64,000 bases of DNA from Squalus acanthias (GCA_030390025.1 CM059438.1:20522001-20586000); one strand, 5' to 3'. Counted from the first letter of the stretch, positions 6,145-63,566 are shown. Notes: generated from the sequence alone by a model not told the origin. Numbers and translations: made by a program.

Positions 6145-6150
6145 TATAAA
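6145..6150 (+). promoter_or_regulatory. TATA box of the SMB-CUB-ZP gene
   Basis: TATAAA lies 44 nt upstream of a strong-context ATG (aaaATGG) that opens a signal-peptide exon. CACACCC box at 6122-6128. Confidence 0.6.
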
Positions 6151-6188: not shown

Positions 6189-6258
6189 ATGGCATCCAAA
6201 GCAAGAGTTCTTTTACATGTCTTTCTCATTACTTTTACTTTCCATGTCAAGAGCTACG
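6189..6258 (+). CDS. Exon 1, signal peptide
   Basis: MASKARVLLHVFLITFTFHVKSY: basic N-terminus plus hydrophobic core. Donor G|gtaagc, phase 1, matching the downstream exons. Confidence 0.8.
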
Positions 6259-9200
6259 GTAAGCGAGGGAGTACTTGTTATTAATATGTTAAATGTCGCA
6301 TTGTTCAAAAGTGATACTGATAAATTACTATCTTAAATGATTGAATTGAAGGAAGGACAGTTCATGTCATTATGAGTTTGGTCATTTGAGCATGTTTAGC
6401 CTCTTAAAAAGTGATAAGTTAAAAGTGAAGAACAAAAAAATATATGGTTTCACACTTTGATTTGCATCAGTGTCGTCATGTTTTTGAGAGATAAAAGTAG
6501 AAATGACATAGAACTGAATAGTAAGAGTGAAGTGGAGAGTTCTGTGTTCAGGCTCTCAGTAAGAAAGCAGCTCTCCAGCTCTTTCGAATTCTCTTTTTAC
6601 GACATTAGAAGATCAAATTAACCAAGCTCTGCTGGCAGCACAAAAGCTGACTGGTGGTGAGCATGGTTCGTACAATCAGGCTCATGTGCCCAAATCACAG
6701 CAAACTCGATTTTCCAAGCTAGGACTTTGGGGTGAGCAAACGAGCCCACCTCAGGTATTTATAAACCTAATTTAAATTTAAATTTTATGTATATTCGGTC
6801 TCACGCAGATTTCACAAATTCCAGCAAGGCACCTCACCCATACAAAAAGGGATGACAACTGATAAATAGGTCTGGCCGACTTTTGAGTGCTTTTTAGAGA
6901 AAGTTTGGTGTTGTTTCAGTTGCTGTTGAAGTCTAGTTTTTTGGCAGTGAGCATTTATCTACTTATGCATTAAACATCCTGCACATTTTATTTCCTTCTG
7001 TATTTCTTCCTTTTTGCTGAAGCCTTCAGTTTGTTAAGCCATACTTTCCTAAATTCTTGCCAATTGCTGCTGAGTACAGTCCTTCTTCCTTCATCCTCAC
7101 TGTGTTGAACTCGAGGACTCCTTGCACATATTCTAATTCATTTTTCCCGGAACCTCAAAACTGTGGCACGCCTAATCTCCTTCAATATTTCCTTCCTTTT
7201 GCAATTTTTAGCATTTTATCACGCAAGCTTGGTAACAGTTGAATCATTACTTCCAGAGATGTTTTCCCTTCTACTCTTTCCAACACTGGCAGCATCCTGT
7301 ATTATAGACGTTGGTGGTTCACCTAGTTTTCACATGGTTAAACTGTGTGCCTTACATCATACAGGATATGGTTTGATGATGATTTAGTAATGATGGTAAG
7401 TATTTTTGTTGTCTGAGATGATTATCAGGCCTGCTCTCCCCGGGCCTGGCAATCATCCACCAACATCTCCGGGATCTTTGCGCGTGCGGTGTGGTGCCGG
7501 GGGTTTGTGCAGCTCCTCTTGCCCACTATCCATGACCCCGTGAACTTTAGCAGAGTCAGCGGCAGATTTCAGTGGTGGGGATGCAATCTCAGCGAAACTG
7601 CAGGATATCCCCTTCTTGAGGGATGTGCCGCCATTGTTTATTCCTTAATGCTTCTCAAAAGGATTATGCAAAGTTTCAGGCTTGAATAGTTATGGGAAAT
7701 ATTAATTATGGATTTGTTTTCATTATTTTGACTGGCTCTACTAGAGCAAATAGACCAACAGGTACTAAAAATGTCTTCAAATTAATGTTAAGTACCTTCC
7801 AGTCTGCCGATTGCATTTTCAGCATTGTTGGTGGGCACAACCCAAGTGGAACAGGCGGTTATCACCGCACCACGACATTTCCTGTTCACTTTTCTTTCTG
7901 TAATGCTGTTCAAAAAGATTGTGCGAAGTTTGAGGCCTGAACAGGTATCAAAAATATTCTGTTTAATAATGCATTTATTTTTTATTATTTTGACAGACAC
8001 TACTGAACCATCACCGGGTACAACAGGTACAGAAAATGTCCTGAAAAATATATTGATCCACATTAGAATGATAAAAGTTCATGACATTTATTTCAGAATT
8101 GAAATCTGCAAAATTGTTTGCAATAAAATGAATTTCAGATCTAACCTAACATTTACTGTATAACAGGATACGGCTCATGCAGATACAACTGTGGGGGATA
8201 TTCATCAGGTTGTTCCTGTGATTACGACTGTGCTTATTATGGCAGCTGTTGCTCTGACTTCTGTGACCACTGTTCTTACATGAATAACGGTAAGAGAACT
8301 TTCAAAAAATAAACTAATATTTAATTGTATTTTAAAGTTAAAACATAAAATGATAAAAAGACTGTCCGAATTACCAATGGGACTTTATTGAAGATTATTG
8401 CTCATATTGAGAATCAGTGTAGCTGAGTCCCGATGATGTGAAATGTTTTTCTGCAGTGTATAATGTAATCCATGAGATTATGGACAGCACCGACCTGACC
8501 TGCACTAATTCGAATGTTAACACAATTCAGTCTGAAATACAGTAACTCAGTTCAATCTTTAGGACATTTGTTTCAACTGCTTTGGAAAGTGTTTGTGTTG
8601 AGGTTAATTCCACAGATAAAGGAGAGAATACCAGTCAGTCCCAGGAGGTAAATGGAGGTCACATATTACTTGGAAAATAAGAATCTAAATTGGATTGTGG
8701 AGCAAAGGGATCTGGCAGTACAAATACACAAATCACTAAAAGTTATGACACACGTCAATAAGGTGTGACATAATGTTACATTCTGAAATATTTATAAAAA
8801 CAGAGCTTTTAAAAATGACCATTGCTGCAATATTTAAGATGATTAATTTTATTCATGTCAATATTCTGCAAAAGTGGGTAAAAGCAAATACATTGTATCT
8901 GGGCAATGGGCAGAGCCGGATTAAGATTCTTGGTGTCCTGGGCATCAAGAACAATCGGAAATCCTCTGCATGTGCCACACAAACCTTCCCTCGCCATCCC
9001 AGCCGATCCATTAAAACACATTTGTGTAGTCAAATAGATGAAAAATTAGGCCCATGGAATGTTTGCACACTGCATTAATAATAAAGCATATAATATTACA
9101 ATATACTACACTTAAATAGAATTACATAGAATATACAGCACAGAAAAAGGCCATTCGGCCCAATCAGTCCATGCCAGGGTTTATACTCCACTTGAGACTC

Positions 9201-12200: not shown

Positions 12201-15200
12201 GATATTGAGGCTTTGGAAAGGGGACAGAGGAGGGCCACAGATGAATTCCCAGTTTGAAGCATTTAGTTACTACGAAAAGCTCAAAGAGCTGGGACTCTAC
12301 ACTTCAGAGAAGCTTAGATTTAGGAGTGACTTGATTGAGGTTTATAAGATGATGAAGGGAATAGATTGTGTTTGTGTAATCTGTTTGTTTGAACTAAATA
12401 GGATAGGGAGGACCAGGGCTCACAATCTCAAGTTATGTGAAGGCAGAACTAGGATAGATGTTAGGAGCTAGTTCTTTTCCCAGAGAATTGCGGACCTGTG
12501 GAACAGGCTGCTGGCTCGAGCAGTGAACACTGATTCACTGAATTCCTTCAAACGAGAGTAAGTCCTGTTTCTGGCTGAGGTGGGTACCATATATCATTAA
12601 TCAGGGCCAGAGTAGTCTCCTGGACTCGTTTCGATTGGAGAGGAATTTTGCAGATTTCTTTCCCAAATTTGCCTGGGTTTTTATTCTCTTCACCCAAGAG
12701 ATGACATGGTTTCCGGCAGGGTGGGGTAGGTGTATATATTGTATGTTGTGTGTGACAGGCTGGCTGCACCAGTGGGCCTTTTCCTGTCCGTATGTTCGTA
12801 AATGTCAATCAGAGCTGATGTTAATAATTTCATTTAGTCATGTGTTATACCAATATTTCTATGAGTATGAATGAATGAGGATTGTTCAAAAAACACTTGT
12901 GAAAGCAAATAAACTGATTATGTTCCTCTATAGGATACTGCGGCGTTTATTCAACTGTACCAGGTCGGTAATATTTAAGTTAATTCTTTTTTTTAAATTT
13001 GTTGCTTTATACATTTGCTGACCCTTTATCAATCAACAATTAATCTTAATGGCTGTGCTCAGAGAATCACAGTATAGATTTGGTACAGTCTTTGTATGCT
13101 TCTGTCTAAAGCCTGCATATTATTCACATAGCTAAAGAGTGTGATCTACATTGTGCTATTTTGATGCTGTTTCATTACCATGTTAAGAAGCTCTTACATT
13201 CATATAATGTAATCTGTATTGTTGATTGGAGAATAAAATTCGAGTATTGCATATGAAGGCAAAATGTGAAATCAAACCAGCTACCAGAACGTTCAATTTG
13301 TTAGGTTCCAACACATTCTATCTTGAGCAGAACATGAATAATCTTTATATCATTTTGTGACTACAGACATTGTTGTATTTGATAAGAAATTGTTTTTCTC
13401 ATCGCATTAAATAGAAGAAAATGGCAAAGACTTCTCTTCTTTTAGGTATTTGTGTTGCTGTGTTCTGTCACTGATTGTCAAAATATCCACTGTGTAAACA
13501 CAGAATCATTCAGCTAGTGCAGAAAATGAAAATGAAATTTCCCAAATAACTGAGGAAAAAAATGTCATGTCATTGTATAATTTTCAAGCCCAGTTGAACA
13601 AATATATAATTTCTCCGGTAATTGTTGGTGATACAAGAATAATCACCAGTGCACCATGCCACAGTGTGAGGGGTTGTAGAGCAGTAAAAGAGAAAGGTTA
13701 AAGGGGACATTTTCTGCTTCTGTGGTTCCAGCGCGGAACATTTCCGGGGGCCTGGAGCGACAGCAGCCCAGAATATCTTTGTGAAACCCGGAGAGGCATT
13801 CCAGCTCTCCCCGGGCCTGGCAATCTTCCACCAACATCTCCGGGATCTTTGTGCGTGCGGTGTGGTGCTGGGGGTTTGTGCAGCTCCTCTTGCCCACTAT
13901 CCATGACCCCGTGAACTTTAGCAGAGTCAGCGGCAGATTTCAGTGGTGGGGATGCAATCTCAGCGAAACTGCAGGATATCCCCTTCTTGAGGAATGTGCC
14001 GCCATTGTTTATTCTTTAATGCTTCTCAAAAGGATTATGCAAAGTTTCAGGCTTGAATAGTTATGGGAAATATTAATTATGGATTTATTTTCATTATTTT
14101 GACTGGCACTACTAGAGCAAATAGACCAACAGGTACTAAAAATGTCTTCAAATTAATGTTAAGTACCTTCCAGTCTGCCGATTGCATTTTCAGTATTGTT
14201 GGTGGGCACAACCCAAGCGGAACAGGCGGTTATCACCGCACCACGTAATTTCCTGGTCACTTTTCTTTCTGTAATGCTGTTCAAGCCTCAAACTTCGTTG
14301 AATCTTTTGAACAGGTCTCAAAAATATTCTGTTTAATAATGCGTTTATTTTTATTATTTTGACAGGCCATACTGGACCATCAACGACAACAGGTACAGAA
14401 AATGTCCTGGAAAATATATTGATCCATATTAGAATGATTAAAGTTCATTACATTTATTTTAAAATTGTAATCTACAACTTTGTTTGCAATAAAATTAATT
14501 TCAGATCTAACCTAACATTTACTGTATAACAGGATATGGCTCATGCAGATACAACTGTGGGGGACATTCATCAGGTTGTATTCATGTATTGGCCAGTACC
14601 ACAGAGAATCTTTTCTGCAGCAAGATGTGTCTGGCATCCCTCCGTAGATCCTCTTCTTCTTCCAAACATGTCAGATAGGGGATTTCCTTTGAAGTTTTTT
14701 GGTAGCACTAATGGTGCTGGGGGAAAGGAGAAGTAATTTACAATAGGTGGCACAAAGGCGTATCAGACCCATTTTAAATGGGCATAATTAATGTTTTACA
14801 TCCTGTGGACCAGGACAGTGGGAGATGGTGTAGGATGAGCACATCCCCAAATTAATATTTAAATACGACGTTCACCATTTGGGAACTACATTTGACCATC
14901 TGTCAAAAGGAGGCGGTGGGACATCGCTCTCACCCTTTCTCAGGGTGGGGGAAACCAGCACTCACCTAGACCGACAATCTGCCACCAGCATTTGCAGCAT
15001 CTTTGGTGGCACAATCCAAGTGGAACGGGCAGTTATCACCGCACCACGAAATTTCCTGTTCACTTTTCTTTCTGTAATGCTGTTCAAAATGATTGTGCGA
15101 AGTTTGAGGCCTGAACAGGTATCAAAAATATTCTGTTTAATAATGCATTAATTTTTTATTATTTTGACAGACTCTACTGAAACATCACAGACATCAGGTA

Positions 15201-18200
15201 CAGAAAATGTCCTGAAAAATATATTGATCCACATTAGAATGATAAAAGTTCAAGACATTTATTTCAAAATTGTAATCTGCAACCTTGTTTGCAATAAAAT
15301 TAATTTCAGATCTAACCTAACATTTACTGTATAACAGGATACGGCTCTTGCAGATACAACTGTGGGGGATATTCGTCAGGTTGTTCCTGTGATTACAACT
15401 GTGCTTATTATGGCAACTGTTGCTCTGACTTCTGTGACCACTGTTCTTACATAAATAACGGTAAGAGAACTTACAGAAAATAAACTAATATTTAATTGTA
15501 TTTTAAAGTTAAAACATAAAATGATAAAAAGACTGTCAGAATTACCAATGGGACTTTATTGAAGATTATTACTCATATTGAGAATCAGTGTAGCTGAGTC
15601 CCGATGATGTGAAATGTTTTTCTGCAGTGTATAATGTAATCCATGAGATTATGGACAGCACCGACCTGACCTGCACTAATTCGAATGTTAACACAATTCA
15701 GTCTGAAATACAGTAACTCAGTTCAATCTTTAGGACATTTGTTTCAACTGCTTTGGAAAGTGTTTGTGTTGAGATTAATTCCACAGATAAAGGAAAGAAT
15801 ACCAGTCAGTCCCAGGAGGTAAATGGAGGTCACATATTACTTGGAAAATAAGAATCTAAATTGGATAGTGGAGCAAAGGGATCTGGCAGTACAAATACAC
15901 AAATCACTAAGGCTTTGGAAAGGGGACAGAGGAGGGCCACAGATGAATTCCCAGTTTGAAGCATTTAGTTTCTATGAAAAGCTCAAAGAACTGGGACTCT
16001 ACACTTCAGAGAAGCTTAGATTTAGGAGTGACTTGATTGAGGTTTATAAGATGATGAAGGGAATATATTGTGTTTGTGTAATCTGTTTGTTTGAACTAAA
16101 TAGGATAGGGAGGACCAGGGCTCACAATCTCAAGTTATGTGAAGGCAGAAGTAGGATAGATGTTAGGAGGTAGTTATTTTCCCAGAGAATTGCGGACCTG
16201 TGGAACAGGCTGCTGGTTCGAGCAGTGAACGCTGATTCACTGAATTCCTTCAAACGAGAGCAACTCCTGTTTCTGGCTGAGGTGGGGATCACTTCATACA
16301 AAAGGTGGGTACCATATATCATTAATCAGGGCCAGAGTAGTCTCCTGGACTAGTTTCGATTGGAGAGGAATTTTGCAGATTTCTTTCCCAAATTTGCCTG
16401 GGTTTTTATTCTCTTCGCCCAAGAGATGACATGGTTTCCGGCAGGGTGGGGTAGGTGTATATATTGTATGTTGTGTGTGACAGGCTGGCTGCACCAGTGG
16501 GCCTTTTCCTGTCCGTATGTTCGTAAATGTCAATCATAGCTGATGTTAATAATTTCATTTAGTCATGTGTTATACTAATATTTCTATGAGTCTGAATGAA
16601 TGAGGATTGTTCAAAAACACTTGATAAAGCAAATAAACTGATTATGTTCCTCTATAGGATACTGCGGCGTTTATTCAACTGTACCAGGTCGGTAATATTT
16701 AAGTTCATTCTTTTTTTTTAATTTGTTGCTTTGTACATTTGCTGACCCTTTATCAATCAACAATTAATCTTAATGGCTGTGCTCAGAGAATCACAGTATA
16801 GATTTGATAAAGTCTTTGTATGCTTCTGTCTAAAGCCTGCATATTATTCACATAGCTAAAGAGTGTGATCTACATTATGTTAAGAAGCTCTTACACTCTT
16901 ACATGCTAAAGGTATCAAGGGATATGGGGAGAAGGCAGGTACAGGGTACTGAGTTTGGATGATCAGCCATGATCTCATCGAATGGCGGAGCAGGCTCGAG
17001 GGGCCGAATGGCCTACTCCTGCTCCTATCTTCTATGTCTATGTTACCATGTTATAATGTAATCGGTATTGTTGATTGGAGATTAAAATTCTAGTATTGCA
17101 TATGAAGGCAAAATGTGAAATCAAACTAGGTACTAGAACGTTAAATTTGTTAGGTTCCAACACATTCTATCTTGATCAGAACATGAATAATCTTTATATA
17201 ATTTTGTGACTACAGACATTGTTGTATTTGATAAGAAATAGTTTTTCTCATCGCATTAAATAGAAGAAAATGGCAAAAACTTCTCTTCTTTTAGGTATTT
17301 GTGTTGCTGTGTTCTGTCACTGATTGTCAAAATATCCACTGTGTAAACACAGAATCATTCAGCTAGCGCGGAAAATGAAAATGAAATTTCCCAAATAACT
17401 GAAAAAAAAATGTCATGTCATTGTATAATTTTCAAGCCCAGTTGAACAAATATATAATTTCTCCGGTAATTATTGGTGATACAAGAATAATCACCAGTGC
17501 ACCATGCCACAGTGTGAGGGGTTGTAGAGCAGTAAAAGAGAAAGGTTAAAGGGGACATTTTCTGCTTCTGTGGTTCCAGCACGAAACATTTCCGGGGGCC
17601 TGGAGCGACAGCAGCCCAGAATATCTTTGTGAAACCCGGAGAGGCATTCCAGCTCTCCCCGGGCCTGGCAATCTTCCACCAAAATCTCCGGGATCTTTGA
17701 GTGTGCGGTGTGGTGCCGGGGGTTTGTGCAGCTCCTCTTGCCCACTATCCATGACCCCGTGAACTTTAGCAGAGTCAGCGGCAGATTTCAGTGGTGGGGA
17801 TGCAATCTCAGCGAAACTGCAGGATATCCCCTTCTTGAGGAATGTGCCGCCATTGTTTATTCTTTAATGCTTGTCAAAAGGATTATGCAAAGTTTCAGGC
17901 TTGAATAGTTATGGGAAATATTAATTATGGATTTGTTTTCATTATTTTCACTGGCACTACTGGAGCAAATAGACCAACAGGTACTAAAAATGTCTTCAAA
18001 TTAATGTTAAGTACCTTCCAGTCTGCCGATTGCATTTTCAGTATTGTTGGTGGGCACAATCCAAGCGGAACAGGTGGTTATCACCGCACCGCATAATTTC
18101 CTGGTCACTTTTCTTTCTGTAATGCTGTTGAAAAAGATTGAATGAAGTTTGAGGCTTGAACAGGTTTCAAAAATATTCTGTTTAATAATGCATTTATTTT

Positions 18201-51200: not shown

Positions 51201-54200
51201 TAGAAGTTTTCAAAACTGAACTGGACAGATTACTGACTTAACAGGGAGTAGAGGGACACAGGCTTGAGATTAAGCAAGGAAGGAGATGCAACTTGTCCAA
51301 GACAGAAATGATAGATGTGGACGATTCCCTCAATTGCTACTTGTTCGTGATGTCATAAACTTGATGGAAAGATTTCCAATGTTTGCAATTTGTAGTAAAA
51401 TTGTAACAACTTTCCAAAAGATGTTTATTATTCTGCCAGGAATTGCAATCAAAGGAATTCTTACATTATATATGCAATGTCGCTAATACATAACCAGGGA
51501 AAATCTATCCCTAAACTGAGCTAGATTAACACAAAAGCCTTTTCATATTGACACCATTTTGTGTTCCTCAACAAATAACTTAATACATGATGAAGCCTAG
51601 ATGGAAATGTCAATCATAGTTGATATTAATAATGTCAAACATAGTTATATTAATTTTATTTTCAATATATATTAAATTAATGTTTCTATGAGTATGAATG
51701 TAATACGATTGTTTAAAAACACCGGGCAAAGCAAAATAATTGTGTTTCTCTACAGGATACTGCGGCACGACTACCCCTACTGAAGGTGAGTAATATTTTT
51801 ACACTAAATGTAACGCCTTTCTTCGTGCTTTCGATAAATGCTCCTAGTGGACAAGACTCTGAGAGTGCAGAAGGGAAAGTTCAACCTTTTACCAAAAGTT
51901 TCCAAGTGAGGAAACATAATACTGATGCTCTTGGCAAGGAATCGCTCTGCCTTTCTCCATTTGGTTCTTTCCCAATGTGCCTCTTGGATCTTGTAGTATC
52001 TGGACTCCACTAAGACCTCTGTTCCGGCCGGTATCCCTATCCTCATCCTTAAGATATGTGCCTCTGAGCTTACACCTGTCCTTTGCTACATTTTCAGTCT
52101 CAGTTATTCTGATTCTATGTTTTCCTTTGCTCAGTGATATGCTTCGTTTATGTCGTCCCTAATGAAGTTGACTGCTCTTATTGCTGCAATGACTGTGCTA
52201 TTGCCTTTACACTGAGAATTATCAGTGACACAAGAGTAATCGCCAGTGCACCATAGCACTGTGCGTGAGGTTGTGGAGCAGCAAAAAAGAAGAATTAAAG
52301 AGTAAATATTCTGCCTCTGTGGTCCCTGCATAGACGATTTGCATGTCAGTAAATTGCATGAGCAATCCCCGATTTCCGAAAGTGGGGCAGGACTCGGGCC
52401 TGATAGTGCAGATGGGAAACTTTACACCAACATTTTAAAGTTCGTAAAAGTAACATTAGTGCTCTTGGGAAAAACTATGCTCCATTTCTTCATTTGGTTC
52501 CCTGATGATGATCAGTATTAAGTTTTATTCGCACCATGGCTCTCAGATCCTCCAATCTCTGAACACCACTAAGGCCTTTAGATTAGAATATCTATTGGCA
52601 GGCTTTAAACAGACTCAACTGAAATTGTGCTATTTGAACCTAATTTCTCTACATCAGCATATTAGCATCAGTTAAAGTGCAGATTTGGACTGGTATTAGG
52701 AGCGCACCATGGATGGGAACAGGAAGTTGCTTGTAAGTAAAGTTTAAAGGGGTGGGGACAATTAAAGGAGAGTGTCATGATAGGGGGACAGCAATTCTGT
52801 AACCATTTGGAGAGTCACAGAAGGCCTCTCAATGTACAGGTACATTGCTCTGTTAATGCTTTATTCCAATGAAAACCAAAAATATTTGTGATTTGCTGTC
52901 GTTTGCACTGGGTCACCTGGGCACAGTGAATATCAGAAGACTATGCAGATTCCTTTACGGTCGTGCACTCGGACCCACCAGATGTTCTGATATTCGGTGT
53001 GCTCAGGCAATCCTGTGCATCTAGCCGCAGGCCCAGGAAGAGGTCTCCTACACATCTTGTTATGACATTATTGACTAAAAATAATTTCAGCTGTAACCTA
53101 ATATTACTGTATAACAGGATACGGCTCATGCAGATACAACTGTGGGGGACATTCATCAGGTTGTTCCTGTGATTACAACTGTGCTTATAATGGCAGCTGT
53201 TGCCATGACTTCTGTGACTACTGTTCTTACATCAATAACGGTAAGAGAACTCTTAAAACTGAAAATGGTACGTAGATGCTTGTGAAAGTTAAATAATGAA
53301 ATGATAAAACACCTTCCACATTCAGAAAAACATTTTATTATAGACTAGTAGATCACCCATAGTGTGGCATACTCGGGGTTGAGGGCATGGTTTGGGGAGA
53401 GGAGCAAGCAGGTGAGGGATGCAGCTTGAAGACAAGAGCAAAGTGTTGGCACAGGGAATCCAACACCGTGTCAGGGAACAGAACTGGTGCACAAAGTGTA
53501 AGAAAAGGGCCAAGTTGAAGGAGTGATGGACTGGGATTGGTTTCCTGTTATCTGGCAACTGGGAATGGAGAAGTCTGGAACCTGAGGCAAATTGATCTTT
53601 CAATGGTATTTTTAATTTTGGCGACTGCGTAAAATGGGCGATATCGGATCGTCCGCCCATTATACACAGATTGGGTGTATAATGGGCAGCTGTGAATGTT
53701 AAAATTACTCCAATGGGTCTGAGGCTGAGGGCAGAGACAGTCTGGGGCGGAGGTCAGGAGCAGTGGCATTCCTGAGGCTGAGGCCAGCAGTAGAGGCGTT
53801 CCTGAGATTGATGCCAAGACTGAAGATGCTCCTGAGGTCAGTGTCAGCAGCCAAGGTGTTGCTTGGGTCGAAGTAATGAGCAAAGGTATTCCTGGGGTAG
53901 ATGTCAGAGATGAAGGCACTCCTGGAGTCAAGGCCTGGATTTAAGGTGTTCCTGGAGTCGATGTCAGCATTTTCGATATTCCTGGGTCGAGGTCAGGAGT
54001 TAAGGTGTTCCTGTGGTCGAGGTCAGGAGTTAAGGTGTTCCTGGGGTCGAGGTCAGGAGTTAAGTTGTTCCTGGGGTCGATGTTTGGAGCAAAGGTGTTC
54101 CTGGGGTTGATGTCACCAGTTAAGGAGTTTCTGGGGATGAAGTCAGGAGCAAAGTTCCTGGGGTCAGCATCAGGATGGAAGGTATTCCTGAGGTTGAGGG

Positions 54201-57200
54201 CAGGAGCAATGGCATTCATTCCTGATATTGACCCTAGGAACACCATCGCTTCTGCCCTCAACCCCAGGAATACCTTCATTCCTGATATTGAACCTAGGAA
54301 GTTATTCCTGGGGTCGAGGGCAGAAGTGATGGTATTCCTGATGTCAGTATCAGGAGTGAAGATGTTCCTGGGGTTGATGTCAGTTGTGATGATGTTCCTG
54401 ATGTCAGTATCAGGAGTGAAGATGTTCCTGGGGTTGATGTCACCAGTTAAGGAGTTCCTGGGGTCGAAGTCAGGAGCAAAGCTGTTCCTGGGGTCAATAT
54501 CAGGAGTGAAGGTATTCCTGGGATCGAGGGCAGCAGCGATGGTGTTCCTGGGGTCAATTTCAGGAGTGAAGATGTTCCTGGCATTGACGTCAGGAGTGAA
54601 GATGTTCCTGGGGTTGAAGCCAGGAATAAAGATGTTGCTGGGGTGGAGTTCAGGAGCGAATGAGATCCTCCGATGAACTGAAATGGACAGAGAATCAGAA
54701 GCTGTGCACACCTGAATTTCAGCTGCTGCACAAGCCTCCCTGTCGGTAGCACAAGTTGGAAAAATTACCTCAAATTCTTGGTTTAGTCAGATTAATGTTA
54801 ATATGGATCTGAGTATAAATGAGGTACTTTCAAAATATCTGATATACTAACTTACTGCTTCCAATTATTTTATTTGCAGATCACTGTTATCTTACTGCAA
54901 GCCCTACTGGTAAGTAAAATTTGAATATATTTGCTGTTGAGTATATTGGTGCCCGTGTGAGTAGGTATGAAAACTTTCAATGTTGTTGACTTCCAGAATC
55001 TACATAGATAGAACTGAGAATGAATAATTGAATGGTATTTATTATTGATTAAATTTTTATATCCCTAAATTATATCCTTATATTAGGTGGAGAAAGCAGA
55101 GCTCAGTAATAAGACCTCAGTTAGAGTACCTTGTACCACCCCCCCTTGACATTCATTGGTATTACCATCGCCAAATCCCCCACCATGAACATCCTGGGGG
55201 TCGCCACTAACCAGAAACTCAACTGGACCAGCCATATAAATGCCATGGCTACAAGAGTAAGTCAGAGGCTGGGTATTCTGCGGCGAGTGTCTCACCTCCT
55301 GACTCCCCACTGCCTCTCCACCATCTACAAGGCACAAATCAGGAGTGTGATGGAACACTCTCCACTTGCCTGGATGGGTGCAGCTCCAACAACACTCAAG
55401 AAGCTCGACATCATCCAGGACAAAGCAGCTGGCTTGATTGGCAGCCCATCCTTCACTTTAAACATTCACTCCCTCCACCACCAGTGCACCATAGCTGCAG
55501 TGTGTACCATGCACAGGATGCACTGCAGCAACTCGCCAAGGCTTCTTTGACAGCACCTCAGAAACCCGCAACCTCCACCACTTAGAAGGACAAGGGCAGC
55601 AAGCGCATGGGAATATCATCACCTCCAAGTTCCCCTCCAAGTCACACATCATCCTCACTTGGACATATATCGCCATTCCTCCATCATCACTGGGTCAAAA
55701 TCCTGGAACTCCCTACTTAACAGTATTGTGGGAGTACCTTCACCAAATGGACTGCAGCAGTTCAATTATGGGCTCACCACCACCTTCTCGAGGGCAATTA
55801 GGGATGGCCAATAAATGCTGGCATTGCTAGCGATGCCCATATCCTGAGAATGAATTACAGAATATATCAGGTTCCACACTACAGCAAAATACTCAGGCTT
55901 TCGAGAGGGTACAAGTCAGATTCACTCAAATACTGCCTGGTATAAGGAAGTTCAAATACAAAGAAAGAGTTAAAACTATTGTGTCTTTTTATATTAGAAT
56001 AATGCAGATTACAGGGTGATATGATAGAAGTGTTTAAAAGGATGAAAGAGGGTAGATAGAAGCAGACTATTTCAACAGTTGAGGGGTCTGGAAGGAGGGA
56101 CCAGAGAAAAAGATGAAATGTGTGACATTTAGAACAGAGGGCAGGGGACACTTCCGAACACAGAGAGTTGTGAGGAGCTGCAATTCACTTCCAGGGTTAG
56201 TGATTGAGGCAGAAACTATATCAATATTCAACATTAGATTGAATAGGTAGAAAAGGGGTTGCAGGGATATGGGAACAGGATGGGTAAATGTGAATGGAAC
56301 TATTTACTTGAGTGGTGGGTAAATATTGACACAGACTTATTGGGGTCAATGGCCTGTTTCCATGATGTAATTCTATGTTTCGTATCTGTTATCTTATACC
56401 TGTCAAAAATATTTGTATTGCCCCACCTGAACTTATCCATTTCCTTACTGTTAATAGGTGGATCTTGTGGAGGGTATCTTGAAGGTGCCTACGGGTCTGT
56501 TAGCAGTCCAGGTTATCCATACTCCTATCCAAATAATGCACGGTGCACTTGGTACATAAGAGTGGACAGAAATCAAAGAATAAAGCTGGAATTTACTAAC
56601 ATTAGGTAGGTAAAAATGTTTCCTCTTTCATATTTTAATGTAAATAATGGCAGGAGTATTTGGTGTCAATTAACTATTGCTGATAGATTCACTTAAATTA
56701 CAACAAGGTGGGGGGACCAATAATTTGATGTTGAGTGCCAGAAGTGCTGGGCTAGGATCACATTATTGGCCCCTCGGCGCATCCTTTTAAACTGAAATAT
56801 ACCCACAGCAAGACAGCAAGGAGGTATTCTCCATTTTGTCTACAAAAAACAGTATTATAGAAATCTGTGATGTCAGTTTACACAAAACACCACCCAGAGC
56901 TAACTGATGCATCTGATGATCTTTCTCTGGCCGGCTGATACCCAGCTGAATCGAGATCAGCATGCTTCCTGATCCCAGATGCCGATTCTGCCACCTGATC
57001 ACAACTCAAATCTTCAGTATCAGTCAAGGTTCAAAAATCAATCCATGTTGAGCTCTTGAGTTTTGTTTTTCATCCAGAGTCGACATTCAGTTAAGAAACG
57101 CAGCTCACTGCCCAGCTAAATGATCTTCAACTGGTGATGGACAGGAAGATTAACAGTTATTGGTTTAATATGTAATCCTGTAAAGTCAAAACAGTAAAGA

Positions 57201-60200: not shown

Positions 60201-63200
60201 TCAAAGGGGCACAATTCAGGATGTAAGGAAGCTACTTAATTTGAATTGGGAGCAGAAAAGCTGAGGAAACGTGTTCATAATTATTATATATGGGAAGAAA
60301 GCATCCTGGGTTGACCAATGGAAGTTGAAACTAGATTGATATTCAAGTATATGCTTGCTAACCTTGAAAAGTTGGGAGAGAAATTTTACAACTAAATTTG
60401 TTAGAGTATGTGCTAAGGCAAATTATACTACATCGGTTGAAAGAATGGTGGATGGATTGAGTAGCCTATACTTGTCCAATATTTCCTCATGTTCTTTGTT
60501 TGGGTCCTGAAATGCCTTCTAATGGTGCTTATACATGCAGACATATTTATAATTGTCTGATTTATTAAGCAAGTTGATAAAAAAAAAGTGGATTACTGTG
60601 AAATTCATTTTCAAACTATGATAATTTTCTTGACAGCCTGGAAGTTACATCAACTTGCTCGTGTGATTATATTGCAATATACGATGGGCCTTCAACATAT
60701 TATCCTTTGCTTTCAAAAATCTGTCATGGATCAAATCAGACATTTACATCATCGTCCAACAGTATGACAATATTTTTTAGCTCTGATTCCAGTGTAACTA
60801 GACGTGGATTTTCTGCAAACTACTACTCTCTGCCAATCAATGATGGTGAGCTTTGTTACACTTCTTGTCTCAAAATTGCAATGTGTTTAACGATAAAGAT
60901 TTTCAACTTAACACCCGAGCATAAAACAGGTCTTGCAGATCGCCGCCCATTACAGAAACCGCCTGATTTGCATTTCCATTGATTTCAGCCAATCGCAATG
61001 CCAGTTTTACTCACTGGTGGCAAGTTGAAAATCTACCCCATGTTTTCAAAGTAGTTGTGGTCACGTTTTATCTTTTCATGTGAACAGTCTTCACGGGGAG
61101 GTTCTTGGTTTACTCAGGAAGCTAGTTTAAGAAAGTAAAGGCTGAAGTACGAGCATGAGTTTTTATATTTTAATGGCCCGGATTTTGCGGTGGGTAAGAT
61201 GGCGTACTCTGAGAGTCCGCCGTCATACCGCCTTTGAAATACACTTTGTGTGTTTACATTCAGTGGGGCTGAAATTCCTAACTTTGGTAATTTTAGTGAA
61301 ACATAACACTTCTTACTAAAATGCACTTTTTGCTAAAGTTAGCAAAGGCAGGAATTTTAGCTCCAATATTTCTGTTTTTGCTAATACAAATTCTGTTGAA
61401 AATTGAGCATTAATAGATCTTTTGCTTTTATCCTACATGGAAATATTAAATCAGAGGAGAAGTTTATATTATTGATAATCAACAACTTTATCAATTGTAG
61501 TCTCTGGTTCCCTCGTGTGTAATTGCACTGAAAGACACTAGCTGAGCAACACTACACTGAGTGATGGAATTTCCAGGCATTATAGATCAGCTTCTTTTCA
61601 GCAGTAAAACATTTTTTGTTTTTGAAAGAAGTAAGGCATTCCTCCTCTATGTAAAGTCCATTTAGTTTCAAAGAAAACCGTCACTTCTCAGTGTGGTTCT
61701 ATAAGTGGCAGAACTGACAGCCATTGGCACAGGGCCTGTGGGCCTGCATGATCTTTTGAAATAATGGTTGAACACAGGTCTCTATAACTTGAGTTCCAAT
61801 CTTGTACTGACAAATGGTCCTGCTGATTGATCAAGAGAAAAGCAGTAAAGTGATACTTTTAGATTCTGGGGTCGGTGCAGATTATCTGTTTCTCAAGCAG
61901 TTTTCATTTCTAATATAGGATTCATGAGGTCATGTTCTAATTTATTTTCCAGATGTGTTAACCTGTTCAACATATTATATGGAAGCAAAAATTAGTAGGT
62001 CCTATCTCGACCTTCTGGGTTTTAATCAGCATTATCTTTACCTGAATGATCGAAACTGCAGGCCAATAATAACAGCTGATGACGTGGTGTTCAAAATACC
62101 ACTCAATAGATGTGGTACATTACGACAGGTAAGAGAAACAGTACTGGGAGGGTTGGCTCGCAAAAGAAAAGCAAGTATACTTCCATTCCCCATGATGATA
62201 TAATTGTAAAAATGTTCAAACTGAACCCTCTTACCCTTTCAACTACTGCACTATTGCCCTTGCATAAATACTTTCTAAAGTTACAGATGTTGTTAGCGCT
62301 CGAATTATCTACCACGTATGGTTTTGGCATAACCGTTCTGCTCTCAGACACTTTGGTAAATCATTTGTCATTGTGTTGGATGTCTTCAAAGCCTCTGATA
62401 TGGTTTGGTGTCAAGACCTTCTAAACTATGGCCTCCCACCTATGTTCTTGATTACTTCTTAAATCAATCTATTTTTCTGCCATTAATGGCTCATTCTTTG
62501 ACTTGTTTTCCATTGATCCCTGTGTCCCCATGGTCTGTCCTCCCCTATTCTATTCCTTCTTTATATCAATGAGCTCCTCCACCTTTTTGCTGATGATTCC
62601 ACTCTACATTCATCTATTTCCTCTGGATCACATGCCATCAGTGTATGTAACCTTCACCACTCTCACAATGTATTTTGATATTCTCCATGTCTTTTGCATT
62701 TGTGCAATGAAACAGCTTTTAACTCTCTGAAAAGCCCAAATTTGCCCAAGATTTGAATACTGCAAATATCTGGGCAGGTTTTTCCAGCACCCCTCTCACA
62801 CTCCTGGACAGGATAAATGAAAAAGTGTGATCCCTCCCTCATCCTGAGCCTCCGATATCCTTTTATCGCAAACTGTCTTATATTTTTCTCTTTACCTACT
62901 GTCATTGCCCTTTGAATTTTTTCCCTTGTTCCTCCTAAACTGAAAATATGCTATCCTACACATCTTCCTCCTCCTTAAAGCCTCACTATGTTGAAATCAA
63001 ATGAAGAATTGTAGTTTTTCTCCTGGAACTAATTGTATTTCAGACTGTAAACCACAACTTTGTGATTTTTTTATACTTTGAAAATATTAATTTGTTCAGT
63101 GGTCACTACCATCTACTGTGCATTAAATATTTCATCTTAGAAAGATTTAAATTCTAACGTACATTCTACACTCACAGGGAAACAATGGCAGTATCACATA

Positions 63201-63566
63201 TTCCAACACCATCCGATCTTCAACTTCTGACGCGGTTATAACACGTGAAAGAAACCTACAGATCAATATCGGCTGTGAAATGCAACAGGATACAATGATT
63301 AAAATAATGTATGTGACAAAAGATGACACAAAAGATGACATAACAGAATCTGGCAAGTTTAATGTCAGCATGACAGTCTTCGACTCGTCATCATTCACCA
63401 GGCCGGTGCTAGAATCACCTTACTATGTGGACCTGAGGCAGGACCTGTTCATGCAAGTTAACCTGCACAGTTCTGACACTGACCTTGTAGTATTTGTGGA
63501 CACCTGCACAGCATCCCCTTATAGATTTGACTGGACATCAAAGACCTATGATCTAATCAAGAATGG
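6189..63566 (+). CDS. DMBT1/CUZD1-like secreted protein: SP-(linker-SMB)x4-CUB-(SMB)x2-CUB-(SMB)x2-CUB-ZP; spliced, 3' end outside window
   Basis: 31 GT-AG exons with compatible phases and no stop codon when joined (about 3,080 nt). CUB and ZP motifs are clear. Exact orthology cannot be determined from sequence alone. Confidence 0.85.
7735..7761 (+). pseudogene. Dead linker micro-exon copy (GSTRANRPT)
   Basis: Same context as the intact exons at 24689 and 33741, but the acceptor reads ttttgacTG instead of ttttgacAG. Donor CAG|gtacta retained. Confidence 0.55.
7997..8026 (+). CDS. Linker micro-exon DTTEPSPGTT
   Basis: ttttgacag| 30 nt |gtacag, phase 1-1, Thr/Pro/Ser-rich. Confidence 0.7.
8167..8289 (+). 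CDS. SMB-like exon 1
   Basis: taacag| GYGSCRYNCGGYSSGCSCDYDCAYYGSCCSDFCDHCSYMNN |gtaaga, 123 nt, phase 1-1. The Cx3Cx6CxCx3Cx5CC spacing matches somatomedin B. Confidence 0.9.
9118..10330 (-). mobile_element. CR1 LINE RT and 3' end, interrupted by a MITE
   Basis: SGVPQGSVLGPLLFTIYINDL, FSDDTKLGG, YRTLVRPHSECCVQFW, TRGHQYKI on the minus strand. Confidence 0.9.
9886..10050. mobile_element. hAT-type MITE inside CR1
   Basis: Termini caatgttcccct / agaggtaacatta, with 8-bp TSD gtcacctc / gtgacctc. Confidence 0.75.
10706..11972 (-). mobile_element. Degenerate Harbinger-type element
   Basis: Termini gactggaatttt / gaaatcctggcc and 3-bp TSD ATA. The empty site acatagtgacc is seen near 30460. Decayed Myb/SANT remnant (WVQWRKSFNDL) near 11480-11515. 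Confidence 0.75.
12165..12600 (+). mobile_element. Degenerate CR1 3' fragment; paralogous copies at about 15910-16310 and 22710-23155
   Basis: YYEKLKELGLYTSEKLRFRSDLIEVYKMMKG...RTRAHNLKL. Confidence 0.8.
12934..12963 (+). CDS. Cys micro-exon GYCGVYSTVP
   Basis: ttcctctatag| 30 nt |gtcggt, phase 1-1. Confidence 0.7.
14106..14132 (+). pseudogene. Dead linker micro-exon copy (GTTRANRPT)
   Basis: Acceptor reads ttttgacTG; paralog of 7735-7761. Confidence 0.55.
14366..14392 (+). CDS. Linker micro-exon GHTGPSTTT
   Basis: ttttgacag| 27 nt |gtacag, phase 1-1. Confidence 0.65.
14533..14579 (+). pseudogene. Truncated SMB-like exon (GYGSCRYNCGGHSSGC)
   Basis: Intact acceptor and the first third of the exon, then an abrupt switch to sequence homologous to the intron at about 24770. 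Confidence 0.8.
15171..15197 (+). CDS. Linker micro-exon DSTETSQTS
   Basis: ttttgacag| 27 nt |gtacag, phase 1-1. Confidence 0.7.
15338..15460 (+). CDS. SMB-like exon 2
   Basis: GYGSCRYNCGGYSSGCSCDYNCAYYGNCCSDFCDHCSYINN, ag/gtaaga, 123 nt. Confidence 0.9.
16658..16687 (+). CDS. Cys micro-exon GYCGVYSTVP
   Basis: Identical to 12934-12963, same splice sites. Confidence 0.7.
16905..17045 (+). mobile_element. Short CR1 3' end, specific to this duplicate
   Basis: Nearly the reverse complement of 4925-5070. Absent from the paralogous site near 13190. Confidence 0.85.
17954..17980 (+). pseudogene. Dead linker micro-exon copy (GTTGANRPT)
   Basis: Acceptor reads ttttcacTG; paralog of 7735-7761. Confidence 0.55.
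18215..18241 (+). CDS. Linker micro-exon DTTETPMTT
   Basis: ttttgacag| 27 nt |gtacag, phase 1-1. Confidence 0.7.
18381..18503 (+). CDS. SMB-like exon 3
   Basis: GYGSCRYNCGGHSSGCSCNYNCAYYGNCCQDFCDHCSYINN, ag/gtaaga, 123 nt. Confidence 0.9.
19140..20016. mobile_element. Harbinger-type non-autonomous element
   Basis: Inverted termini ggccgcgatttt / aaaatcgtggcc and 3-bp TSD ATT. The empty site aaatacattgtatct is seen at about 8886-8900. Confidence 0.85.
20240..21820 (-). mobile_element. CR1 LINE RT and 3' end; paralog of 9118-10330, with nested hAT MITE at 21011-21166
   Basis: PGNYRLVSLTSVAGKIMESLLK, YRTLVRPHSECCVQFW, RRLRGDLIEVFKIMKGFD. The MITE has TSD gtgacctc on both sides. Confidence 0.9.
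23474..23503 (+). CDS. Cys micro-exon GYCSAYSTPS
   Basis: ttcctctatag| 30 nt |gtcagt, phase 1-1. Confidence 0.75.
23862..24087. mobile_element. Penelope-type fold-back insert
   Basis: Inverted arms of about 80 bp and a 13-bp TSD ATGAATAATCTTT. Empty sites at about 13334 and 17183. Confidence 0.8.
23926..23962 (-). ncRNA. Minimal hammerhead ribozyme motif, stem III mutated
   Basis: Minus strand: AGTT CTGACGA AGGGTCATCGACCT GAAA TG TT AACT. Confidence 0.55.
24689..24712 (+). CDS. Linker micro-exon GIQPTTPT
   Basis: ttttgacag| 24 nt |gtactc, phase 1-1. Confidence 0.65.
25468..28950 (+). mobile_element. Long degenerate CR1 LINE (ORF1 SGNH esterase, ORF2 APE and RT with internal deletion, 3' tail) inserted into a micro-exon
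   Basis: CWDCDMW; VAVIGDSII...CCLPGARVRDI...VVMVHIG; AITET; FDKVPH; GVPQGSVLGP; LYKALVRPHLEYCVQFWAP; tail cctatcttcctatgt. Many stops and frameshifts. Confidence 0.9.
26860..27340 (+). mobile_element. L2-type LINE 3' end nested in CR1
   Basis: ITPVLADLHWL...FKILILVFKSLHGLAPPYL...GGRAF...LWNSLP...FKTLLKTYLF, with tail (gtt)n. Confidence 0.85.
29112..29228 (+). CDS. SMB-like exon 4, 6 nt shorter at the 5' end
   Basis: GSCRYNCGGYPSGCSCDYNCDYYGNCCPDFCDHCSYINY, 117 nt, ag/gtaaga, frame preserved. Confidence 0.9.
30629..30655 (+). CDS. Cys micro-exon GYCGVTTTM
   Basis: ttcctctacag| 27 nt |gtcagt, phase 1-1. Confidence 0.75.
33741..33764 (+). CDS. Linker micro-exon GETTANPT
   Basis: ttgtgacag| 24 nt |gtacta, phase 1-1. 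Confidence 0.65.
33794..34522. mobile_element. Harbinger-type MITE
   Basis: Inverted termini gggctggatttt / aaaatccagccc. Confidence 0.7.
35619..35766 (+). CDS. CUB domain 1, exon a
   Basis: GGSCGGYLEGSHGSVSSPGYPYSYPNNARCTWYIRVDRNQTIKLEFTDI; ag / AG|gtaggt, phase 1-2. Confidence 0.95.
37620..37828 (+). CDS. CUB domain 1, exon b
   Basis: LEVTSTCSYDYIAIYNGPSTYYPLLSKICNGTNQTFTSSSNSMTIFFSSDSSVTRRGFTANYYSLPIND; phase 2-1, donor gtgagc. Confidence 0.95.
39525..39647 (+). CDS. SMB-like exon 5
   Basis: GYGSCRYNCGGHSSGCSCDYNCAYYGNCCQDFCDHCSYINN, 123 nt. Confidence 0.9.
41040..41069 (+). CDS. Cys micro-exon GYCGTTTPTE
   Basis: tctctacag| 30 nt |gtgagt, consensus donor, phase 1-1. Confidence 0.85.
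42402..42524 (+). CDS. SMB-like exon 6
   Basis: GYGSCRYNCGGHSSGCSCDYNCAYNGSCCHDFCDYCSYINN, 123 nt. Confidence 0.9.
43070..43950. repeat. 30-bp minisatellite with an internal inverted block
   Basis: Unit about gttcctggggtcgakgtcaggagtkaaggt. Units at about 43562-43648 are in the opposite orientation. Confidence 0.9.
44167..44196 (+). CDS. Cys micro-exon DHCYLTASPT
   Basis: tatttgcag| 30 nt |gtaagt, consensus donor, phase 1-1. Confidence 0.85.
44410..45130 (+). mobile_element. Non-LTR retrotransposon 3' fragment (RT C-terminus); paralog at about 55125-55855
   Basis: ILGVATDRKINWTSHI...YKAQVRSVMEHSPLAW...LNIIQNKA-like motifs. Clade not resolved. Confidence 0.8.
45739..46744 (-). mobile_element. 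RTE-clade LINE, 5'-truncated with inverted 5' segment
   Basis: Minus strand: LLYASETW...QLRWTGHIVHMPDTRLPKQALYSEL...CPTCDSDCRSRIGLISH plus (aag)n tail. Plus strand from about 46376: GNYRGVSLLS...QEKCREQ...AFFDLTKA. 11-bp TSD TCCTCCACAAT. Confidence 0.9.
47253..47400 (+). CDS. CUB domain 2, exon a
   Basis: As CUB1a with D>N near the end; same splice sites. Confidence 0.95.
49254..49462 (+). CDS. CUB domain 2, exon b
   Basis: LEVSSTCSYDY...FFSTDHSVTRRGFTANYYSLPIND; same splice sites. Confidence 0.95.
50241..50363 (+). CDS. SMB-like exon 7
   Basis: Same peptide as SMB exon 5; ag/gtaaga. Confidence 0.9.
51756..51785 (+). CDS. Cys micro-exon GYCGTTTPTE
   Basis: Identical to 41040-41069. Confidence 0.85.
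53118..53240 (+). CDS. SMB-like exon 8
   Basis: Same peptide as SMB exon 6; ag/gtaaga. Confidence 0.9.
53790..54660. repeat. 30-bp minisatellite, duplicate copy with a different unit composition
   Basis: Paralog of 43070-43950 with units gained and lost; same internal inversion. Confidence 0.9.
54880..54909 (+). CDS. Cys micro-exon DHCYLTASPT
   Basis: Identical to 44167-44196. Confidence 0.85.
56458..56605 (+). CDS. CUB domain 3, exon a
   Basis: GGSCGGYLEGAYGSVSSPGYPYSYPNNARCTWYIRVDRNQRIKLEFTNI; same splice sites. Confidence 0.95.
58200..59225 (-). mobile_element. CR1 LINE RT and 3' end
   Basis: LYNTLVRPQLHYCVQFWAP...TRGHRFRV; tail atagaatcatagaat. Confidence 0.9.
59323..59454 (-). mobile_element. 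Short Penelope-type insert
   Basis: Same family as 23862-24087. 14-bp TSD CTTGCAGTACTGCG (59309-59322, 59455-59468). Confidence 0.8.
59417..59456 (-). ncRNA. Minimal hammerhead ribozyme motif
   Basis: Minus strand: AGAGTT CTGACGA AGGGTTTCGACCT GAAA CG TT AACTCT. Core CUGAnGA and GAAA, 6-bp stem I, stem II, palindromic ACGU stem III. Confidence 0.7.
60637..60845 (+). CDS. CUB domain 3, exon b
   Basis: LEVTSTCSCDYIAIYDGPSTYYPLLSKICHGSNQTFTSSSNSMTIFFSSDSSVTRRGFSANYYSLPIND; phase 2-1. Confidence 0.95.
61953..62128 (+). CDS. ZP module, exon 1 (ZP-N)
   Basis: ttttccag| VLTCSTYYMEAKISRSYL...LYLNDRNCRP...VVFKIPLNRCGTLRQ |gtaaga, phase 1-0. Confidence 0.95.
63178..63566 (+). CDS. ZP module, exon 2 (end of ZP-N, linker, start of ZP-C)
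   Basis: ctcacag| GNNGSITYSNTI...VITRERNLQINIGCEM...GKFNVSMTVF...SPYYVDLRQDLFMQVNL...LVVFVDTCTASP...YDLIKNG |gtaaga, DMBT1/CUZD1-type ZP sequence. Confidence 0.95.

Follow-up and report, generated by a model that had tools for sequence, protein, structure and literature searches.

The window analysed here, 64,000 nt of Squalus acanthias (GCA_030390025.1 CM059438.1:20522001-20586000, with positions counted from its first letter), holds a real gene that combines SMB, CUB and ZP modules. Its 31 exons in the window, spanning 6189 to 63566, were rebuilt independently and matched to Pfam, and the number, phase compatibility and domain order put forward in an initial annotation were recovered; all introns are GT..AG. 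Together with two exons located just past the window they encode a protein of 1171 aa with zero internal stops and the layout SP-(SMB)4-CUB-(SMB)2-CUB-(SMB)2-CUB-ZP-cleavage site-TM. The extent given in that annotation was thus right for the window exons, while the RQKR site and the TM tail, both past the window, had been missed. We assign a probability of about 0.58 to the overall reading that this is the DMBT1/CUZD1-locus gene of the shark, with SMBs in the places of SRCR, and that its product is a glycoprotein likely secreted at mucosal surfaces and likely shed, whose SMB arrays on a ZP scaffold would bind microbes or partners in mucus in a multivalent way.

The features described in this paragraph and the next all lie on the plus strand. 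A TATA-like box of putative function, recognised from sequence only, is found at 6143-6150, ~40 nt upstream of the ATG. Exon 1 (6189-6258) encodes the signal peptide and shows 71% identity to the N-terminus of the ortholog P0004; its junction is absent among the joints listed, and the same holds for RNA joints of the S/T/P linker micro-exon that follows in the gene model (7997-8026). The SMB1 exon (8167-8289; Pfam), with 9 Cys, is joined in run X3 to a tenth-Cys micro-exon; the one assigned to SMB1 in the model (12934-12963) has the same letters as 16658-16687. Two linker micro-exons, 14366-14392 and 15171-15197, are joined to each other in X5, skipping a truncated ninth SMB copy (14533-14579) that consists of the first 47 nt of an SMB with unrelated sequence after it. 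The SMB2 exon (15338-15460; Pfam) is joined to its tenth-Cys micro-exon (16658-16687) in X3 and X5, and the next linker (18215-18241) is joined in X5 to SMB3 (18381-18503; Pfam), whose tenth-Cys micro-exon (23474-23503) is joined to its neighbours at either end in X3 and X5; RNA-like joints also exist for the linker at 24689-24712. The SMB4 exon (29112-29228; Pfam) is 6 nt shorter on the acceptor side, and the tenth-Cys micro-exon and linker after it (30629-30655 and 33741-33764) are predicted, like the TATA-like box, from the bare sequence. Micro-exon look-alikes around 7733, 14104 and 17952 were left out, with TG where the AG acceptor is expected, as were candidates near 25459, 28965, 31638 and 32521, which have poor splice sites or non-linker-like sequence.

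The second part of the model starts with the CUB1 exons a and b (35619-35766 and 37620-37828; Pfam), followed by SMB5 (39525-39647; Pfam), a tenth-Cys micro-exon (41040-41069) whose letters are flanked by SMB exons on either side in a contig from X2, SMB6 (42402-42524; Pfam) and its tenth-Cys micro-exon (44167-44196), identical in its letters to 54880-54909. The micro-exon letters of the X2 contig fit the 41040 and the 51756 copy alike. Then come the CUB2 exons a (47253-47400; contig pieces in X1 and X5) and b (49254-49462), SMB7 (50241-50363) with its tenth-Cys micro-exon (51756-51785), SMB8 (53118-53240) with its own (54880-54909), and the CUB3 exons a (56458-56605; Pfam) and b (60637-60845; Pfam), the latter joined to ZP-N in 4/4 runs. 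The first ZP-N exon (61953-62128; Pfam, RNA-like joint) is followed by one covering the end of ZP-N, the interdomain linker and the start of ZP-C (63178-63566; Pfam, RNA-like contig). Past the window, L001:161-432 (Pfam) completes ZP-C with the RQKR cleavage site and a likely hydrophobic patch, and L001:1236-1399 encodes the TM helix, the tail and the stop.

Splicing was assessed with contigs from among seven runs presumed to be RNA, including X1, X2, X3, X5 and X6, whose tables of joints are listed in part; the comparison covers the window before 25.6 kb and after 44.5 kb. A 1784-nt contig from X1 contains CUB-a, CUB-b, ZP-N and the next ZP exon without gaps, and extends by another 111 letters towards the SMBs. 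The joint between SMB8 and its micro-exon (53239 to 54879) is present in 4/4 runs from two studies, and in X1 its depth of 13.9 equals that of the 1784-nt contig. For the N-terminal region, six GT..AG joints and one SMB-linker-SMB contig are among the joints listed, where X6 has no joint of this gene. The presumed transcripts link SMB to CUB to ZP.

In the mechanism that we consider somewhat better than even, the signal peptide and TM helix would route the protein through the secretory path, and a furin-type cut at RQKR would shed the ectodomain and leave the ZP module free to form oligomers or polymers. The S/T/P micro-exon linkers would be O-glycosylated spacers, as the SIDs of DMBT1 are, and each ten-cysteine, tyrosine-rich SMB could behave as a small rigid binding knob, with avidity arising from eight SMBs per chain times the oligomer and with the CUBs contributing protein contacts.

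Eight exons in the window match the SMB pattern, against 0 in 200 local shuffles, and all six SMB exons scanned matched Pfam PF01033 with E values from 7e-5 to 4e-4; only one of the six passed the curated cut-off singly, while whole orthologs pass it. At the protein level SMB7 equals SMB5 and SMB8 equals SMB6, and pN/pS among the SMB copies is ~0.40. The number of SMBs ranges from 1 to 18 per protein (141 proteins). With 24-30 nt each, most of the linkers between the repeats fall short of the length of DMBT1's SIDs (20-24 aa). The closest matches among solved SMBs are SUSD2 (E 3.6e-6), ENDOU (0.28) and vitronectin (0.75). A Tyr-Tyr pair, present in 94 of 138 SMB modules, aligns in the last of these, weak match with a pair in vitronectin that we take to be a binding hot spot.

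Of the ten cysteines in the shark SMB, the tenth is encoded by a separate micro-exon; the eight-cysteine teleost form is 8 residues shorter. A first alternative is a structural apical-matrix protein that takes no part in recognition, in which ZP filaments with cross-linking, Cys- and Tyr-rich SMBs would form a coat or gel, the cross-links being made by dityrosine or by the extra C-x-x-C through disulfide exchange. Such a role would suit an N-terminal array that has few charges and, in its 254 aa, 40 Cys and 34 Tyr, the C-x-x-C pair gained by the long SMB form, and the fact that the nearest solved ZP relatives are the filament-forming uromodulin and an egg-coat filament. We regard it as unlikely, however: the two extra cysteines occur together (both in 51 and neither in 732 of 798 SMB modules) and the AlphaFold model of the ortholog P0002 is confident up to the tenth Cys (pLDDT ~70-83 for the SMB modules), which fits a closed fifth disulfide with no free thiols expected, and teleosts, which lack the cysteine pair, keep the protein. 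The fold matches listed for the P0002 model are CUB- or ZP-bearing chains.

PF00431 was matched by the four CUB half-exons scanned, of six in the gene. A Glu/Asp/Asp ligand triad defines calcium-binding CUBs, and all three shark CUBs, with P0002 aligned to cubilin, show LE, C-x-x-D-Y and F-S/T-D-type positions, which suggests that they retain this triad. Among the CUB copies the synonymous to non-synonymous counts, all small, were 1:5, 2:9 and 3:12, with no signal of purifying selection. The ZP-N exon matches PF23344 and the ZP-C exon PF00100, and the module has ten Cys, the basic RQKR site, a hydrophobic strand and the TM helix; conserved cysteines, a cleavage site, a hydrophobic patch and a membrane anchor are listed for polymerising ZP modules in PMC7665627. 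The residue after Cys4 of ZP-N is Met in the shark and Tyr in uromodulin. According to the same source, an aromatic residue there is thought to be critical for polymerisation and is also missing in human DMBT1 (PMC7665627). Met at Cys4+2 is found in 119 of 123 ZPs of the SMB+ZP type, and in this gene as well. In line with the initial annotation, a pattern search gave no EGF exon, and Pfam gave no EGF match in three orthologs.

The gene very probably belongs to the DMBT1/CUZD1 locus, to which synteny and the ZP tree both tie it. Upstream, at a distance of 73 kb and in the same orientation, are HTRA1-like exons (81-95% identity in 3 of 5 pieces), and PAAT (C10orf88) lies 390 kb downstream, so that the shark gene is the first after HTRA1, the position and strand that we take DMBT1 to have in human; the synteny check suggested at the outset thus came out in favour of the DMBT1 position. 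Scans with a purpose-built HMM (control P0005, E 2e-32), which finds SRCRs at other loci of the shark genome, gave no SRCR exon in the window and its flanks or across the 564 kb from HTRA1 to PAAT, in agreement with the initial annotation. In a tree of 30 ZP segments, selected for taxonomic breadth out of 122 and including DMBT1 and CUZD1, the shark ZP fell inside the DMBT1/CUZD1 clade (100/100) and apart from two other ZP genes of the same genome. Of the families proposed earlier for such a tree (DMBT1, CUZD1, UMOD, GP2 and tectorins), it covers DMBT1 and CUZD1. The unconstrained topology places the fish ZPs nearer to CUZD1 with weak support (85/91), and AU tests reject neither fish plus DMBT1 (p-AU 0.28) nor DMBT1 plus CUZD1 (p-AU 0.15) as a single clade, so co-orthology with CUZD1 is possible. 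A separate CUB-ZP gene adjoins PAAT, and its grouping with CUZD1 is rejected (p-AU 0.002). The locus appears to have given rise to three CUB-only membrane genes.

These data bear on a second alternative, that of a CUZD1/GP2-like, membrane-anchored secretory-granule or apical receptor that would sort cargo or aid signalling and whose SMBs, like that of vitronectin, would bind a protease, inhibitor or receptor of the host. It would agree with the leaning of the free tree to CUZD1, with the vitronectin-like Tyr-Tyr pair, and with the TM helix and short tail seen here, in P0001, in P0003 and in a bowfin model. Yet this gene comes first after HTRA1, with the separate CUB-ZP gene, which does not group with CUZD1, next to PAAT, a TM is seen in three and lacking in 120 of 123 SMB+ZP models, and a shed multivalent binder is the better fit to tandem arrays of variable number and a cleavage site that is intact; we consider this alternative quite unlikely. 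The TM tail itself, which most teleost models lack, speaks for a membrane-bound form.

The layout had been taken for a hidden protein of cartilaginous fish, a view that did not hold, since it is present in public models from ray-finned and cartilaginous fishes alike. SMB, CUB and ZP occur together in 112 of the best 120 SMB matches, from sharks, sturgeon, gar, bowfin and teleosts, and the matching models are automatically named DMBT1-like or cuzd1.1/1.2; the architecture is already in databases, under misleading names. The sawshark ortholog P0001 reads (SMB)12-CUB-(SMB)2-CUB-ZP-TM. Among the matches listed, tetrapod and coelacanth CUZD1 entries have no SMB, while models from three fishes carry SRCR and SMB together, and the ancestor may therefore have had both. 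It is a tentative and somewhat doubtful extension that the DMBT1 of the jawed-vertebrate ancestor had SRCR and SMB, that coelacanth and tetrapods kept SRCR and most fishes SMB, and that SMB would be an unrecognised innate-immune recognition module, with the part in fish mucus that SRCR plays in mammals. A search of titles and the starts of abstracts, with subscription papers and supplements outside its scope, found no paper on an exchange of SRCR for SMB. According to published reports, fish genes under these names are expressed in the intestine of zebrafish (PMC9600436) and in salmon gill (PMC8129531), show raised levels in a mutant rich in goblet cells (PMC8959185) and are specific to the rectum in yellowtail (PMC6191305); by analogy with like-named proteins of other fishes, they probably encode SMBs. 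A cod 'cuzd1-like' gene (PMC5938384) was set aside, as its N-terminal domain is described there as unknown and it may be another gene.

The CUB-SMB-SMB units are recent tandem copies (35531-60884) with a period of ~11 kb and introns 0.9-2.0% divergent. It is improbable that the eight-SMB/three-CUB layout is partly an assembly artefact, with one unit as a misplaced second haplotype and two CUBs in the real protein: the units are 98-99% identical, introns included, the closest ortholog (sawshark) has two CUBs and no contig across two units is among the joints listed, but the three CUB introns are near-equally divergent (1.6-2.0%), the units differ by insertions, and contigs from both X1 and X2 combine letters of the CUB3 type with letters of the CUB1/2 type, the pattern in one run being the opposite of that in the other, so that two or more types of CUB must be transcribed (CUB1 and CUB2 not being separated).

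Fish 'DMBT1' and 'cuzd1' in gut, gill and infection transcriptomes have been read through the mammalian proteins, although in the place of the ligand-binding SRCRs of DMBT1 the fish models identified here carry SMB. For a similar job at the mucus surface, fish thus likely rely on another, putative binding module, and if most fishes did keep SMB, the many studies that interpret fish 'DMBT1' as a scavenger receptor of the SRCR type would concern a protein without SRCR. The exchange offers a clean test of binding by an SMB array, with zebrafish cuzd1.1/1.2 available for a genetic one, and makes exon-level evolution visible, with phase-1 cassettes duplicating and a domain completed by a micro-exon. 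With this domain layout widespread among fishes and already visible in database annotations, the gene is less surprising than was first assumed.

Several known systems come close. One is DMBT1 (gp340, salivary agglutinin, hensin, CRP-ductin), given for human as (SRCR-SID)8-13, CUB, SRCR, CUB, ZP in PMC3100851, where its features include the binding of bacteria and of mucosal defence proteins. Judged by the layout described there, the shark gene has CUBs followed by a C-terminal ZP and S/T-rich spacers and lacks SRCR, so that the bacteria-binding peptide of the DMBT1 SRCR (PMC3100851) cannot occur in it. Both share an array of repeats and S/T linkers with variable repeat number, CUBs with a repeat between them, the ZP clade, Met at Cys4+2 and the position after HTRA1 on the same strand. 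The shark protein differs in its 40-aa SMBs, which fill the SRCR slots as the initial annotation had proposed, the one between CUBs included, and in its three CUBs and TM tail. CUZD1 has a TM end; the CUB-ZP-cleavage site-TM end and the locus are shared with it, and the shark gene adds eight SMBs and linkers. The fish cuzd1.1/cuzd1.2 and DMBT1-like models have the same Pfam set and are likely orthologs or co-orthologs, although many teleost ones begin with CUB, most lack the TM, and the shark repeats the CUB-SMB-SMB unit. SUSD2, ENDOU and vitronectin share the eight-Cys spacing of their SMBs, to which the shark adds two cysteines and tandem arrays on CUB-ZP. Uromodulin and GP2, which have a cleavage site and a membrane anchor, are, among solved ZP modules, the most similar in both sequence and fold (17-24% identity in fold matches); their N-terminal domains differ, and uromodulin keeps the Tyr after Cys4 of ZP-N where the shark protein has Met.

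On its + strand the window shows, in a six-frame scan, eight exons with the SMB pattern together with CUB exons and a ZP exon; as a control for the eight, the SMB pattern was absent from 200 local shuffles. After boundary fixing the gene has 31 exons within the window and two more in the following 1.4 kb of the same contig, with all introns GT..AG, and the spliced product is an open frame of 1171 aa without a stop. From the signal peptide it runs through four SMBs, then CUB, two SMBs, CUB, two SMBs and a third CUB to a ten-cysteine ZP, followed by RQKR, a hydrophobic strand, a TM helix and a short tail. In Pfam, PF01033 was matched by 6/6 SMB exons scanned (singly, one was above the cut-off) and PF00431 by 4/4 CUB half-exons scanned, while the ZP exons matched ZP-N and ZP-C. 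The SRCR HMM gave no match in the window and flanks, nor in the 564 kb around it; the same HMM does detect SRCRs in P0005, an SRCR-bearing control protein, and at other loci of this genome. The SRCR-free SMB-CUB-ZP architecture of the initial annotation could thus be rebuilt. Very large SRCR exon clusters lie elsewhere in the genome (contigs C17, C26, C18 and C5; 837 candidates, 150 scored). CUB3 (60638-60844) carries an extra, possibly unpaired Cys where CUB1 and CUB2 have Tyr, and cysteines also stand at the equivalent position in several CUBs of ray-finned fishes.

Splicing was followed in contigs from coded runs that we guess to be RNA, compared with 44.5-64 kb and 6-25.6 kb of the window, and here too SMB exons appear joined to CUB/ZP exons. 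The joint of SMB8 to its micro-exon and that of CUB3b to ZP-N were found in all four runs, from two studies. A 1784-nt contig of run X1 has CUB-a, CUB-b and two ZP exons contiguous, the 111 letters left over at its 5' end fitting a 30-nt micro-exon plus part of an SMB, and the depth of the SMB joint equals that of this contig. X3 or X5 showed six GT..AG joints among N-terminal SMB and micro-exons; in X2, one contig places a tenth-Cys micro-exon between two SMBs. Two sequences of linkers (short S/T/P-coding exons) in X5 have no counterpart in the gene model built on this assembly, and the allele or species of that sample may therefore be a different one. The contigs are apparently collapsed mosaics of repeats, and repeat copy number is therefore not readable from them; the signal-peptide joint, the micro-exon at 7997, the exons in 25.6-44.5 kb and the TM exon were taken from genomic sequence, not reads.

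With the SMB exon as query seven proteins were found: models with the full SMB+CUB+ZP set from Pristiophorus, Scyliorhinus and Heterodontus, a fragment with SMB only and, from Heptranchias, three short models in which an SRCR adjoins the SMB. Among the best 120 of 321 matches of a CUB-ZP search, PF01033 occurred in 22, all from fishes, and the tetrapod and coelacanth rows had SRCR, or CUB and ZP only. Among the best 120 of 199 matches of a mixed SMB profile, 112 had SMB+CUB+ZP, the 119 named rows were all fishes, and one (Alosa) had SRCR in addition; a Coilia model carries both SRCR and SMB. These 22 and 112 rows indicate that the layout is the common form in fishes, present in public annotations under automatic names (DMBT1-like, CUZD1, or cuzd1 tandem duplicates 1 and 2), and the idea of a hidden protein of cartilaginous fish was not supported. 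An unnamed metagenome protein, P0211 (539 aa), looks prokaryotic in its N-terminal half and has about seven eight-Cys SMB-like repeats in tandem.

The contig order is HTRA1-like (+), the window gene (+), a CUB-rich cluster, a CUB-ZP gene (+) and PAAT (-); we take the human order to be HTRA1, DMBT1, CUZD1, C10orf88/PAAT. In a ZP tree of 34 rows the gene is sister to Pristiophorus (100/99), inside cartilaginous fishes, and, with two distant ZP genes of the shark genome as outgroup, falls in the DMBT1/CUZD1 clade (100/100). The outgroup genes come from a group of five ZP exon matches that are more remote (C26:31.80-31.93 Mb, loci L051-L054; 28-33% identical in the exon searched). Deep nodes were weakly supported, and AU tests rejected neither a fish+DMBT1 clade (p 0.28) nor a DMBT1+CUZD1 clade (p 0.15). 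What can safely be said is that the gene occupies the DMBT1 position and is a co-ortholog of DMBT1/CUZD1. The divergent CUB-ZP gene adjoining PAAT (C14:20951636-20967461, +) groups with cartilaginous-fish ZPs, not with tetrapod CUZD1, a grouping that the AU test rejected (p 0.002). The intervening cluster (loci L002-L042) holds three likely SP-(CUB)n-TM genes at C14:20602736-20664765 (+), 20678004-20806793 (-) and 20851652-20898186 (+), with 4, 10 and 3 CUB domains and without SMB or ZP. Their signal-peptide and TM exons resemble those of the window gene, and they appear to be derivatives after loss of the SMB array and ZP module; P0009 from a stingray, which has seven CUBs and lacks ZP, looks like them. 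Scattered remains of a second copy of the window gene lie at C14:20823039-20827770 (-) and 20913973-20914562 (-), with an intact SMB exon (95%) and a ZP exon that an insertion and stops have broken; its ZP-C and TM exons (88-91%) are 90 kb off and out of order.

The shark SMB, whose best solved match is SUSD2 (E 3.6e-6), has the eight canonical cysteines and two extra ones, the first within the SMB exon and the second, the tenth overall, on the next micro-exon. Among 798 modules in 141 proteins, counts that reflect few evolutionary events, 51 had both extra cysteines, 732 neither, 11 the first only and 4 the second only; of the 11, ten were inspected, nine being models visibly without the micro-exon and one a filter artefact. 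Sharks, a ray, sturgeons, paddlefish, gar and bowfin have the ten-Cys form, the last two together with the short form within one protein; teleost rows have the short form only. In two teleost models the micro-exon is skipped and the eighth Cys is missing; this suggests that an 8-residue deletion, bringing the micro-exon Cys to the canonical position, gave rise to the short form. AlphaFold, run for the ortholog P0002 on a 35-row alignment (mean pLDDT 67.8), gives each module a confident block that stops at the tenth Cys or within two residues of it, which is consistent with a fifth disulfide.

All SMB exons and micro-exons are phase 1-1 cassettes. DNA similarity among the N-terminal units is about 80-96%; a truncated ninth SMB (14533-14579) and three linker copies, each with a dead acceptor, also lie there. 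Tandem repeats of the CUB-SMB-SMB unit recur at a period of 11 kb, and their introns diverge by 0.9-2.0%. Pooled pN was 0.051 vs pS 0.127 for the SMB copies (28 non-independent pairs), and the CUB copies showed no pN deficit relative to pS, on small counts. A 30-nt minisatellite in the introns after SMB6 and SMB8 (43015-43947 and 53731-54656) was duplicated along with the unit; the - strand open frame in it, about 280 codons long, gave no convincing match in a family search. LINE-type fragments (45793-46782 and many introns, one with a reverse-transcriptase match, PF00078) are not the same in each unit. A 258-codon frame at 138-911 (-), which contains a 54-nt tandem repeat, encodes a Myb/SANT-like DNA-binding domain (PF13873, E 6e-8), a domain typical of Harbinger-type transposons.

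The Heptranchias SRCR beside the SMB has its closest match in mammalian DMBT1 SRCRs, at 64%; the best of 12 sampled SRCRs of the shark genome reaches 51%. It groups with the DMBT1 SRCRs (84/85), together with one long-branched SRCR of the shark genome; the two clupeiform SRCRs fall outside. Short gene models are the source here, and they lend modest support to an ancestor that may have carried both SRCR and SMB cassettes. No description of the SMB-CUB-ZP form was found in the literature searched, subscription journals and supplements being outside its scope. Its visibility in public annotations of many fishes makes the architecture less surprising; the SMB-for-SRCR swap, the split ten-Cys module and the possible two-cassette ancestor look undescribed.

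As to function, the features needed for ZP cleavage and release, on the model in PMC7665627, are present bar the aromatic residue after ZP-N Cys4, which according to the same paper human DMBT1 also lacks. Published studies place like-named fish genes in zebrafish intestine (PMC9600436), a goblet-cell-rich mutant (PMC8959185), yellowtail rectum (PMC6191305) and salmon gill (PMC8129531). The release features, these sites and the DMBT1-like layout lead us to favour, at a probability of roughly 0.58, a protein that would be shed from the cell after ZP cleavage and provide multivalent binding at the mucosa. A purely structural, cross-linked matrix protein seems unlikely to us on the same evidence, and a CUZD1-like membrane receptor slightly more so.

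The layout, allele-variable repeats, glycosylated spacers and SRCR-based binding of DMBT1 are described in PMC3100851. The sawshark ortholog (P0001) has the same layout slot for slot, with SMBs in it; the window gene differs from DMBT1 proper in having no SRCR, though it belongs to the DMBT1/CUZD1 locus lineage, and it likely works in a manner similar to DMBT1.
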